From Escherichia phage EC.P1, in the sequence record PQ657772.1: a stretch of DNA of 64,000 nt; one strand, given 5' to 3'. A program made the translations under genes and the position numbers. Positions 6,743 to 8,720 of the stretch are shown one piece after another (the stretch's first letter is position 1; every line of letters begins with the position of its first letter). The notes below the pieces were generated by a model, which saw only the letters and a list, made by a program, of their open reading frames with translations, did no database searches and had not been told where the DNA came from.

Positions 6743-7024
6743 TTAAATTATTTCATATAGACAATATACACCATCAACGCCATCACAAGGAAAATCAACA
6801 TAGAAATTCACACTAACAGTATCATAATCAATCTCAGTGATGCGTCCGGTTTTACCTACACTCTTTACAAATAGTTCAGAACCAAGATATACAAACTCAA
6901 ACTCATCTGCATACTCTTTTATAATATCAGCGAAATCACAACCATATCTGGGATCAGTATTAATAATCTCAAGATATAATGTAATGTATTGTTCGTATGA
7001 CCATGTGTGTAGGTAAAAATCCAT
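6743..7024 (-). CDS. hypothetical protein
   Basis: Track ORF 93 aa. Confidence 0.5.
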   Translation of the reverse strand: MDFYLHTWSYEQYITLYLEIINTDPRYGCDFADIIKEYADEFEFVYLGSELFVKSVGKTGRITEIDYDTVSVNFYVDFPCDGVDGVYCLYEII

Positions 7025-7033
7025 AACAGTTCC

Positions 7034-7762
7034 TTAGAAATATACCATACCCATCAATTCTGAATCTTCAGGGCGAGTATAACCTTGTTTCTTAACTTTA
7101 AAGTAGAAGGATTCATTATCTTCTAAATTATAACGTTTCTTTAAGCAACGGGTGTATGTTTGGCAATTAGGTGAAACCCATTCATAAACATGAACACCAT
7201 TTTCATCATAACCATTAATACTACAACGGTTTCCTTCGTGTTTCTTGAAGTTTTTACTCTTCTCAGTGAATTCTTTTACCGATGTAGTGGATGGTTTTTT
7301 ATATTCAAATGGAACTTCTGTTATACGAAAATAGAAATATTGGTCGTCTTCATCATATCCAACTAGCACTGTGTTAGTTTCACGTACATTGTAATGATTC
7401 TTACTTTTCAATTCATTTTCATATATATCTTTTAATACCTCATCGAATACAATATCACTTGCTGCATTTGGGTCTGAAACCCCACTAATACGGCGTTCAA
7501 TAATAAAATCGGTGAATTTGCGGTCTTCTGAAATATCTTCATTCATATAAAGACTTACGAACTTATCCTTGTATGTCTTTACGCTATATTGTTTGCTTTG
7601 AACTTCACTATAAACATCAGCTAACATGTTAGCTTGTCCACATTGTATACCGCTAGATGAATATGCCGCAGCATGTTCAGCCATAACAGATGTTAACATT
7701 TGGAAATTTGCAATATTGAGTTGATTCGCCATTTCTGTTGCAAATTTTATATTATCTATCAT
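7034..7762 (-). CDS. hypothetical protein
   Basis: Track ORF 242 aa. Confidence 0.55.
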   Translation of the reverse strand: MIDNIKFATEMANQLNIANFQMLTSVMAEHAAAYSSSGIQCGQANMLADVYSEVQSKQYSVKTYKDKFVSLYMNEDISEDRKFTDFIIERRISGVSDPNAASDIVFDEVLKDIYENELKSKNHYNVRETNTVLVGYDEDDQYFYFRITEVPFEYKKPSTTSVKEFTEKSKNFKKHEGNRCSINGYDENGVHVYEWVSPNCQTYTRCLKKRYNLEDNESFYFKVKKQGYTRPEDSELMGMVYF

Positions 7763-7787
7763 TTCACATTCCTTGTGTTTATGATTT

Positions 7788-8720
7788 TCATATTTTTAAT
7801 TTATTTTCGAGTAAACATTTACATACATAATCAATAACAAGATTTATGTCTTGTAAATCAAATGTTTCAGTATACCCATCACCAAAATAATCCTTTGGCA
7901 ATTTACTACTATTTTTAAGCAGATTTAAAATATTATATTCTACACTTTTAATAACTTCGGTATTTCCAGTAAAATAATATAATTCCTCTACTATAAAATT
8001 AGTTTTTGACCTAATACTAATTAGTCTTGATTTATCAATCTTTGTAGAAATACCAACTTTATATTTTATTAAAATATTTTGTTCATATATTCCTAAAATA
8101 TATAATTTACTTTCTTCTGGGATTGGTCTGATACAATTGCAGTTAAGAGATCCACATTTAACTCTACTATAATTAATATATTTGTCAAAATTACACGCTG
8201 TACAATAAAATCTAACCTTATATTGTGTACCACGGTATGTAGATTTATCCATATATATTGTATTTGAGTAATCTTTTATTTTATTCATAATAGTGTTATA
8301 TGCTTCGTCGATATCTAACGGCATACAATATGATGAATGACATTTACAATATGAACCTCTAGACTTAACATCATGCACCGTCATATATCTTTCAAACGCA
8401 CAATCGTCACAATAAAATCTAGATTTGTTTTTTGTAGTTGTGAATGTGGAAATATCTAATTTTAATTTTGAATTAATTTCACCCAATTTATTATATAAAG
8501 TTTTAAATGTGGGACAGTGACAAAATATTCCATTTTTGTACACATTCCTAACTATGATATTTTTACTAAACCCACATTCATCACAGAAAAAAGTTGATTT
8601 GTTTGATATGGTAGTGTATGTTGTTCTATCCATTTTTACCGATGAACCAATTGAACTCAATTTTTCATCAACCAGTCTGAATACTTCAGAATCTGGCTTT
8701 TTACTTGGCACTTTACACAC
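7788..8720 (-). CDS. zinc-finger-repeat protein with C-terminal T5orf172/GIY-YIG-like nuclease domain
   Basis: Three repeats of FxCxxCxF..(17-20)..CxC modules, then LYILGIYEQ...KVGIS...GDGYTETF; track start is GTG, true start may be the internal ATG (MDRTTY). Confidence 0.55.
   Translation of the reverse strand: MCKVPSKKPDSEVFRLVDEKLSSIGSSVKMDRTTYTTISNKSTFFCDECGFSKNIIVRNVYKNGIFCHCPTFKTLYNKLGEINSKLKLDISTFTTTKNKSRFYCDDCAFERYMTVHDVKSRGSYCKCHSSYCMPLDIDEAYNTIMNKIKDYSNTIYMDKSTYRGTQYKVRFYCTACNFDKYINYSRVKCGSLNCNCIRPIPEESKLYILGIYEQNILIKYKVGISTKIDKSRLISIRSKTNFIVEELYYFTGNTEVIKSVEYNILNLLKNSSKLPKDYFGDGYTETFDLQDINLVIDYVCKCLLENKLKI

Follow-up and report, generated by a model that had tools for sequence, protein, structure and literature searches.

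A Candidate Homing Endonuclease Gene of the T5orf172 Type at the Start of a Core Gene in Asteriusvirus Jumbo Phages

Homing endonuclease genes of the T5orf172 type are described by Barth et al. (2023, PMC10448857) as "beads on a string", in which CapR, DUF723 or DUF4379 zinc-finger repeats are followed by a T5orf172 domain. The CxxC...CxC cysteines of CapR are required for DNA binding (PMC8096241), and DNA cleavage by a T5orf172 domain is reported for Odn (cited in PMC10448857). Zinc-finger/T5orf172 homing endonuclease genes and their place at recombination boundaries have already been described. Here we report on a gene that probably belongs to the same T5orf172 branch of the GIY-YIG superfamily and that probably represents a free-standing homing endonuclease gene. 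It was found in a stretch of 64,000 nucleotides from Escherichia phage EC.P1 (sequence record PQ657772.1), referred to as the window below and used for all coordinates. There, it is placed directly after the start codon that a conserved gene for a protein of 242 amino acids (aa) possesses in phages without the nuclease.

The window originates from an Asteriusvirus, that is, a PBECO4/121Q-like jumbo phage of E. coli. A megablast search with positions 5000–11000 returned 35 phage records, all of them Asteriusvirus jumbo phages of E. coli or Salmonella, with vB_Ec-M-J (97% identity) and TH47 as the nearest ones. Every gene in the region around the nuclease locus lies on the minus strand.

Domain architecture and family of the nuclease

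Three minus-strand open reading frames (ORFs) make up the locus, 6743..7024 (93 aa), 7034..7762 (242 aa) and 7788..8720 (310 aa from the first GTG). The last of these likely starts at the GTG at 8711, giving a protein of 307 aa, since this codon follows AAGGAG at a distance of 8 nt and agrees with the annotation of vB_Ec-M-J. In the GenBank record of that phage the gene is already labelled 'endonuclease'.

The three tandem zinc-binding modules noticed in the first-pass annotation of this DNA were confirmed as three CxxC-17-CxC repeats (Table 1), and 12 out of 12 cysteines are invariant in four close homologues. Among the other six-frame ORFs of the window, neither this pattern nor a paralogue of the nuclease was found. 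The C-terminal third of the protein contains the motifs LYILGIY...YKVGIS...R...E...FGDGYTETF, with E282 located within GDGYTETF. None of the close homologues departs from Y204, R229, E258 or E282, and most of the remote homologues displayed keep them. From motif order and spacing we infer that Y204, R229 and the Glu would be equivalent to Y6, R27 and E75 of I-TevI. For the catalytic domain, an alpha/beta fold of the GIY-YIG kind was found.

In PHROGs the protein is assigned to phrog_681 'endonuclease' (E 6e-21). A Pfam scan of the full protein gave no T5orf172 or MUG113 match at E<=1 and merely a weak CoiA_N zinc-ribbon match, and the isolated C-terminal 112 aa matched neither T5orf172 nor MUG113 at E<=10. 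The window protein itself does not reach the curated cut-off of T5orf172 (PF10544) or MUG113 (PF13455), and a scan of NCBIfam returned no family for it. The assignment is carried by its homologues instead. Three of them, with 98%, 74% and 55% identity, were retrieved by a word-indexed protein search. The most distant one (P0003, 55–56%) scores 16.4 bits for T5orf172 (cut-off 20) and 16.0 for MUG113 (cut-off 22.3), which is below the thresholds with nearly the whole profiles covered. An exhaustive search with a profile of four close homologues yielded 52 proteins at E<=1e-3. When 54 sequences (51 profile-search matches, the window protein, P0002 and P0003) were scanned for Pfam families, DUF4379 was found in 24, CapR in 23, MUG113 in 19, T5orf172 in 17 and DUF723 in 16. 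Five proteins (P0007, P0008, P0009, P0014 and P0016) exceed the curated T5orf172/MUG113 cut-offs in a region that aligns to query residues ~200–300.

The GIY...YIG-like domain ending in GDGYTETF that had been proposed from the letters alone is in accordance with these remote-homologue profiles. Homology to T5orf172/MUG113 is found through intermediate sequences, and the repeated N-terminal CxxC...CxC modules of T5orf172-type homing endonuclease genes are found through the CapR, DUF723 and DUF4379 matches of the homologues. Within the family, conservation is highest in the C-terminal domain. Against PDB sequences, phmmer gave only a weak GATA zinc-finger match for the nuclease, and the family profile retrieved DUF4379 and zinc-ribbon proteins only, the best being a DUF4379 protein at E 0.007. 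A defence-associated role, considered earlier as an alternative, was not supported: PADLOC-DB contained no match at E<=0.1 for the nuclease, its three homologues or the 242-aa and 93-aa proteins.

Insertion site, linked tract and distribution

By tblastn, the nuclease gene was detected in two out of 50,697 phage records and in two of the 70 records that hold the 242-aa gene. A metagenomic survey added 20 further loci with the start of the 242-aa gene (19 metagenomic loci and the 121Q contig of IMG/VR); two of them carry the nuclease gene, both as the 98% allele. The scan of IMG/VR with the 242-aa gene found 121Q only. The exact nuclease protein of the window is present on 23 public contigs. 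The site is occupied in the window, TH47, vB_Ec-M-J and the loci L018, L032, L005 and L004; it is empty in some 65 records besides PBECO4, 121Q and Ecwhy_1. The PBECO4 genome lacks ~920 bp here, and its orthologues of 8770..9054 and 7034..7762 adjoin. That close relatives differ in the presence or absence of a gene at one homologous site is characteristic of homing genes and, together with the architecture, bears out the homing-endonuclease-like reading given at first. At the same site of the diverged relatives L005 and L004, nuclease homologues with 75% and 56% identity and a synonymous divergence (dS) of ~1–1.7 are located.

The 242-aa gene was found in 70 records of phages of Escherichia, Salmonella, Klebsiella, Erwinia, Serratia, Yersinia, Pectobacterium, Cronobacter and Xanthomonas. 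With ~70% nucleotide identity across the RaK2-like genera it is a core gene of the clade. Counterparts of the two smaller ORFs were found at the same position in nuclease-less relatives, with 90–99% identity for the 93-aa ORF and 86–89% for the 242-aa ORF. Since both are present in all relatives, 6743..7762 is no insert. Of the ~2 kb originally taken as a recently acquired insert, only the nuclease gene proved to be inserted, and synteny with related phages likewise confirms its absence from most of them and the presence of the 93-aa and 242-aa core genes in all.

The junctions were compared between occupied and empty alleles. Ahead of the nuclease gene, one copy of the ribosome-binding-site/start region, AACACAAGGAGTGTGTAAAGTG, matches without any difference the stretch before the 242-aa gene in Ecwhy_1, GTG start included, and homology stops right after this codon. 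Behind the nuclease stop a slightly different copy, AACACAAGGAATGTGAAATG, equips the 242-aa gene with a ribosome-binding site and an ATG. The same duplicated arrangement occurs in L005 and L004. A promoter element, TGATATAAT, is conserved in empty and occupied alleles (PBECO4, Ecwhy_1, L004 and L005). It would serve the 242-aa gene in nuclease-less phages and appears here in front of the nuclease gene. The nuclease gene has taken over promoter, ribosome-binding site and start codon from the 242-aa gene, to which it returns a second ribosome-binding site and an ATG. The conserved sequence at the locus is CACAAGGAGTGTG...ATGCTTGACCGTATCCG. In all three carrier lineages the 5' end of the 242-aa gene reads ATGATAGATAA(T/C)AT(A/T)AAA (MIDNIK), and nuclease-less Asteriusvirus alleles start with CTTGACCGTATCCGT, also written (A/G)TGCTTGACCGTATCCGT (MLDRIR).

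The altered start is continued by a divergent tract. A 10.4-kb part of the window was aligned with the carriers TH47 and vB_Ec-M-J and with Ecwhy_1, which has no nuclease. In sliding identity and mismatch maps, the window is 82–85% identical to Ecwhy_1 over 7118–7786 and 97–100% almost everywhere else, flanks included, with zero mismatches over 8708–9100. Among the three nuclease-carrying phages the tract is 98–100% identical. Over the 5' 645 nt of the 242-aa gene the carrier allele is ~82% identical to every nuclease-less allele, whereas those are 88–96% identical among themselves; compared to PBECO4, the proportion of synonymous differences (pS) of the carrier allele is ~0.64. A linked flanking tract and an altered target sequence in carriers, both typical of homing genes, are therefore found at this locus.

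The longest identical run of the 10.4-kb comparison is shared with TH47 and covers the 242-aa gene, the nuclease gene and the promoter (Table 1). Just outside of it, identity to TH47 decreases to 63–80% over 6719–7015 and 76% over 8913–9112. The simplest reading of this pattern is an Ecwhy_1-type backbone that would have been given 7118–8707 by a TH47-type donor. The crossovers would lie within 7016–7117 on one side and 8708–8770 on the other, and the moving unit would be 7118–8707, that is, the nuclease gene with the 5' two-thirds of the 242-aa gene.

Table 1. Coordinates of the features at and near the nuclease locus (positions in the 64,000-nucleotide window).
Feature	Position	Strand	Basis or remark
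Free-standing homing-endonuclease-like gene, 307 aa	7788..8711	-	GTG start 8711, TGA stop 7790–7788
Zinc module 1, residues 27–66, C43-x2-C46-x17-C64-x-C66	8514..8633	-	sequence and repeat alignment
Zinc module 2, residues 85–124, C101-x2-C104-x17-C122-x-C124	8340..8459	-	sequence and repeat alignment
Zinc module 3, residues 154–193, C170-x2-C173-x17-C191-x-C193	8133..8252	-	sequence and repeat alignment
T5orf172/MUG113-type GIY-YIG-fold nuclease domain, residues ~200–300	7812..8114	-	conserved Y204, K218-V-G220, R229, E258, E282
242-aa core gene, probable homing target	7034..7762	-	predicted fold like type II restriction endonucleases (PD-(D/E)XK)
Upstream copy of ribosome-binding-site/start region, AACACAAGGAGTGTGTAAAGTG	8709..8730	-	junction comparison
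Downstream, slightly different copy, AACACAAGGAATGTGAAATG	7760..7779	-	behind nuclease stop; ribosome-binding site and ATG for 242-aa gene
Sigma-70-like promoter, GGGACA-16-TATAAT, extended -10 TG	8752..8779	-	promoter scan, 10/12 matches
Nuclease-linked divergent tract, 5' 645 nt of 242-aa gene and spacer	7118..7787	-	identity and mismatch maps
1755-bp block identical to TH47	7016..8770	.	longest identical run in 10.4-kb comparison; next 456 bp
T4-type RNA repair pair genes	1965–2897 and 3720–4862	-	polynucleotide kinase/phosphatase, RNA ligase 1

Several neighbours of the locus were observed as well. In one relative (ph0011, L003 3374–4858) a 494-aa gene with its own terminator hairpin occupies the same intergenic region (window ~8712–8770), and the spacer is therefore a recurrent insertion site. 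This gene was considered as a longer relative of the nuclease and rejected: it is unrelated and tail-fibre-like (phrog_13714, E 6e-184). A 192-aa gene at 5810–6388 (minus strand), 1.4 kb from the nuclease gene, is without counterpart in Ecwhy_1 and the metagenomic relative L004 and represents a further presence/absence polymorphism. The T4-type RNA repair pair downstream of the locus (PseT-like and RnlA-like) is syntenic across the clade. On the other side, at 9950–11353 (minus strand), a run of small ORFs of ~90–100 aa with mutual tblastn matches at 25–35% identity looks like a tandem paralogue family. By synteny, ~52.8–64 kb of the window overlaps with the 21.5-kb direct terminal repeat annotated in vB_Ec-M-J. 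After 55 kb the GC content changes from ~0.32 to 0.38–0.43 and the codon usage shifts (z -1 to -2.5).

Probable homing, its alternatives and the AGTACT palindrome

For a homing endonuclease gene the following course of events can be proposed. The three treble-clef-type zinc modules, of the CapR/DUF723/DUF4379 kind, would jointly recognise a long DNA site. In a co-infecting Asteriusvirus without the nuclease, the C-terminal GIY-YIG-fold domain would then cut the empty allele where the 242-aa gene begins or close by. Repair of the break by recombination from the carrier genome would copy the nuclease gene in and co-convert the neighbouring portion of the 242-aa gene. The carrier genome is probably shielded from its own enzyme by its changed first codons and diverged 5' tract. 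The exchange pattern observed is what double-strand-break repair after homing would predict, and the ~670-bp one-sided tract may hint at the position of the cut.

Some results weigh against homing. With the full structural model, Foldseek found nothing in the PDB at E<=0.001; the top matches were trypanosome mitoribosomal DUF4379 proteins, aligned through the zinc modules. The conversion tract is strongly one-sided, extending over 670 bp or more in one direction and no more than 63 bp in the other, so that the extra assumption of a cut inside the 242-aa gene is required. In addition, general recombination could have moved the block, because mosaic patches unrelated to the nuclease are common. 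Finally, the divergence of the nuclease homologues roughly parallels that of the neighbouring accessory genes, a pattern that would also fit long vertical residence combined with loss in the PBECO4 lineage.

Two of these mosaic patches lie close by. The 93-aa gene of TH47 is 63–80% identical to the window (6719–7015), directly beside the identical 1755 bp, and 9113–9312 of the window, within a mosaic stretch at 8913–9312, differs by ~26% from both vB_Ec-M-J and Ecwhy_1.

A recent entry of the nuclease from outside the clade was rejected: homologues with 75% and 56% identity occupy this very site in diverged relatives at dS ~1–1.7 and show that the element family is old at the locus. The recent event is only the last transfer between lineages.

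Compared to the 75% and 56% homologues, the ratio of non-synonymous to synonymous divergence (dN/dS) of the nuclease gene is 0.16–0.23, and the protein is therefore maintained by selection. Purifying selection over such a deep divergence could also point towards a domesticated derivative of a homing endonuclease that serves the phage, be it by marker exclusion, by attack on a satellite or competitor as for ICP1 Odn, or by repression at the promoter/ribosome-binding-site region as for CapR and I-TevI. The homologues remained at one locus in lineages with dS ~1–1.7, a conserved promoter and a duplicated ribosome-binding site immediately precede the gene, and CapR and Odn offer documented precedent. 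Domestication is nevertheless a possible rather than a likely explanation. Most Asteriusvirus genomes do without the gene, presence/absence combined with a linked divergent flank is the classic signature of a selfish element, and besides lacking a PADLOC match, the gene has neither a further copy nor a partner gene elsewhere in the window.

A further alternative concerns catalysis. The second tyrosine of the YIG motif is replaced by lysine (KVG), and Lys instead of His occupies the helix position that follows the conserved Glu. Combined with the missing direct Pfam match to T5orf172 or GIY-YIG and the frequent recombination mosaics nearby, this might indicate a catalytically dead relic, namely a zinc-finger DNA-binding protein with a non-cutting GIY-YIG-like domain, whose locus is shuffled by ordinary recombination. 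However, K-I/V-G is the normal form of the motif in the aligned T5orf172-type homologues, and the Tyr, the Arg and both Glu do not vary among close homologues and recur in most of the remote ones displayed. In addition, dN/dS is well under 1, no part of the family is better conserved than the C-terminal domain, and the T5orf172 domain of Odn is an active nuclease. We consider a dead relic quite unlikely.

The sequence around the locus is marked by the palindrome AGTACT, which occurs 217 times in the window compared to 17 ± 4.5 times in shuffles. The enrichment is genome-wide in PBECO4, with 111 sites in 50 kb of a distant region. In RaK2, CBB, XbC2 and the metagenomic L004 the hexamer is 7–13-fold enriched and by far the top over-represented palindromic hexamer. 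Three genera are thereby included (Asteriusvirus, Alcyoneusvirus and Mimasvirus). No enrichment was observed in the outgroup PA5oct, with 4 sites compared to 17 expected; PA5oct is not among the 70 records matching the 242-aa gene. The sites occur in all three reading frames and between genes and show a weak extension, C-AGTACT-G. Between the window and PBECO4, 78% of the aligned AGTACT sites are conserved, compared to 53% for all hexamers. A literature search for AGTACT together with these phages found no paper.

One could combine these findings with the predicted fold of the 242-aa protein. AGTACT might be a functional genome mark of the RaK2-like clade, the 242-aa protein with its restriction-endonuclease fold its reader (a site-specific binding, nicking or processing enzyme), and the homing endonuclease a specialist for the start of the reader gene. 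The nuclease-linked block would then be free of marks through its horizontal circulation as a selfish unit escaping AGTACT installation or selection. Built on co-occurrence in one clade and a predicted fold, this combined model is very unlikely as a whole.

The absence of AGTACT over 6743..8720, noticed by eye in the first-pass annotation, is real: no site lies between 6669 and 8919. The gap of 2250 bp is the third longest in the window, and since only ~0.01 gaps of this length are expected among 217 at the local density of 4.4 sites/kb, it exceeds chance. Within the gap GTACT and AGTAC are lacking as well and GTAC occurs only five times. The 242-aa gene contains no AGTACT in the carrier allele and one to three in nuclease-less alleles. 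Among the nuclease genes, the window type and the L005 type contain none and the L004 type contains two.

The suggestion that this absence indicates recency held only in part. The window has two larger AGTACT-free blocks, 37021–46154 and 49004–54977, and the corresponding regions of PBECO4 (L010 17001–24000 and 27001–32000) are likewise AGTACT-free, so that these blocks are conserved regional features and not insertions. Together with the diverged nuclease homologues at the same site, they make the lack of AGTACT unreliable evidence of recency, and it does not date acquisition in these genomes. The first block contains 46 TGTACT on the plus strand (AGTACA on the coding strand) instead of AGTACT, and the second contains few GTAC of any kind. 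A tRNA cluster as origin of the AGTACT-poor block at 49–55 kb was rejected, as the window has no tRNA genes.

The comparison of k-mers and codons with the flanks, from which the proposed insert should have stood out, gave no outlier. Codon usage of the three ORFs is typical (z ~+1). In tetranucleotide distance the nuclease gene reaches the 88th percentile, the 93-aa ORF the 26th, the 242-aa ORF the 36th and the whole span the 76th. The nuclease gene is very AT-rich, and low GC and the lack of AGTACT/GTACT are the sole standout features of composition. That 6743..8720 in its entirety is a single foreign island of recent acquisition, marked by the lack of AGTACT, is thus hardly conceivable. In its favour, AGTACT, AGTAC and GTACT are all absent from 6675–8918, and the nuclease gene has the lowest GC content at third codon positions (0.177) of 123 listed ORFs and ranks among the lowest 0.2% of windows of equal length in total GC content. 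Against it, codon usage and tetranucleotide distance are unremarkable, 6675–7112 is AGTACT-free in PBECO4 and ph0011 too, AGTACT-free blocks of 6–9 kb are conserved in PBECO4, and with both smaller ORFs at the same position in nuclease-less relatives, the 242-aa gene being core, synteny and identity refute the island for 6743–7112.

A homing endonuclease gene stays the probable explanation. By itself the gene adds little to what is known, but it offers a clean case from nature in E. coli jumbo phages that can be cultivated. Carrier isolates (vB_Ec-M-J and TH47) exist beside near-isogenic isolates without the nuclease (Ecwhy_1 and fEgEco12) and the insertion point is defined to the base, so that homing would be directly testable by crosses. 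The leads of greater interest are the palindrome AGTACT, over-represented throughout the clade, and the unannotated 242-aa core protein with its predicted restriction-enzyme-like fold.

Comparison with described systems

Seg proteins possess a canonical N-terminal GIY-YIG domain and C-terminal DNA-binding regions that are no zinc repeats. The window protein differs from them by the reversed domain order and a T5orf172-type nuclease. Both are encoded by intergenic free-standing genes between conserved genes, with sporadic occurrence and a co-converted flank (Seg as cited in PMC10448857). The one-sided tract of the window locus is compatible with a cut distant from the insertion point, as known for SegG (cited in PMC10448857). 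In contrast to the window gene, I-TevI, the endonuclease of the T4 td intron, is intron-encoded and combines a single zinc finger, serving as distance sensor, with a C-terminal helix-turn-helix. The GIY-YIG nucleases of the SLX1/URI type have 11–15% sequence identity to the window nuclease; they are eukaryotic and structure-specific, need SLX4 as partner and carry a C-terminal RING/PHD finger.

PLE CapR shares the CxxC...CxC DNA-binding module but has no nuclease domain and works as a repressor. The spacing within the modules is 24–26 residues in CapR compared to 17 in the window protein. With ICP1 Odn the T5orf172 nuclease domain is held in common, and for Odn its cleavage activity has been demonstrated.

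The architecture is shared with Gp53, Gp121, Gp130, Gp165 and Gp174 of vibriophage ICP1 and other phage T5orf172 genes, which (Netter et al. 2021, PMC8096241; Barth et al. 2023, PMC10448857) combine N-terminal CxxC...CxC modules with a C-terminal T5orf172 domain. Like the window gene, they are free-standing beside a conserved gene, lie at an exchange boundary and show presence/absence polymorphism among close relatives. Unlike them, the window protein stays under the Pfam thresholds for all these families, and its probable target is the gene for a protein of predicted restriction-endonuclease fold. Its host is an Asteriusvirus jumbo phage, a group not named among the enriched clades in the excerpted text of PMC10448857.

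Within the jumbo-phage clade itself, RaK2 gp047 (ORF488 'endonuclease, similar to ICP1') belongs to the same phrog_681 (E 6e-45). It is located beside the genes for head maturation protease and DNA ligase and differs in its N-terminal region, whereas the C-terminal domains of both proteins are 29% identical over 97 aa, including YI...KFGI...DGYTET.

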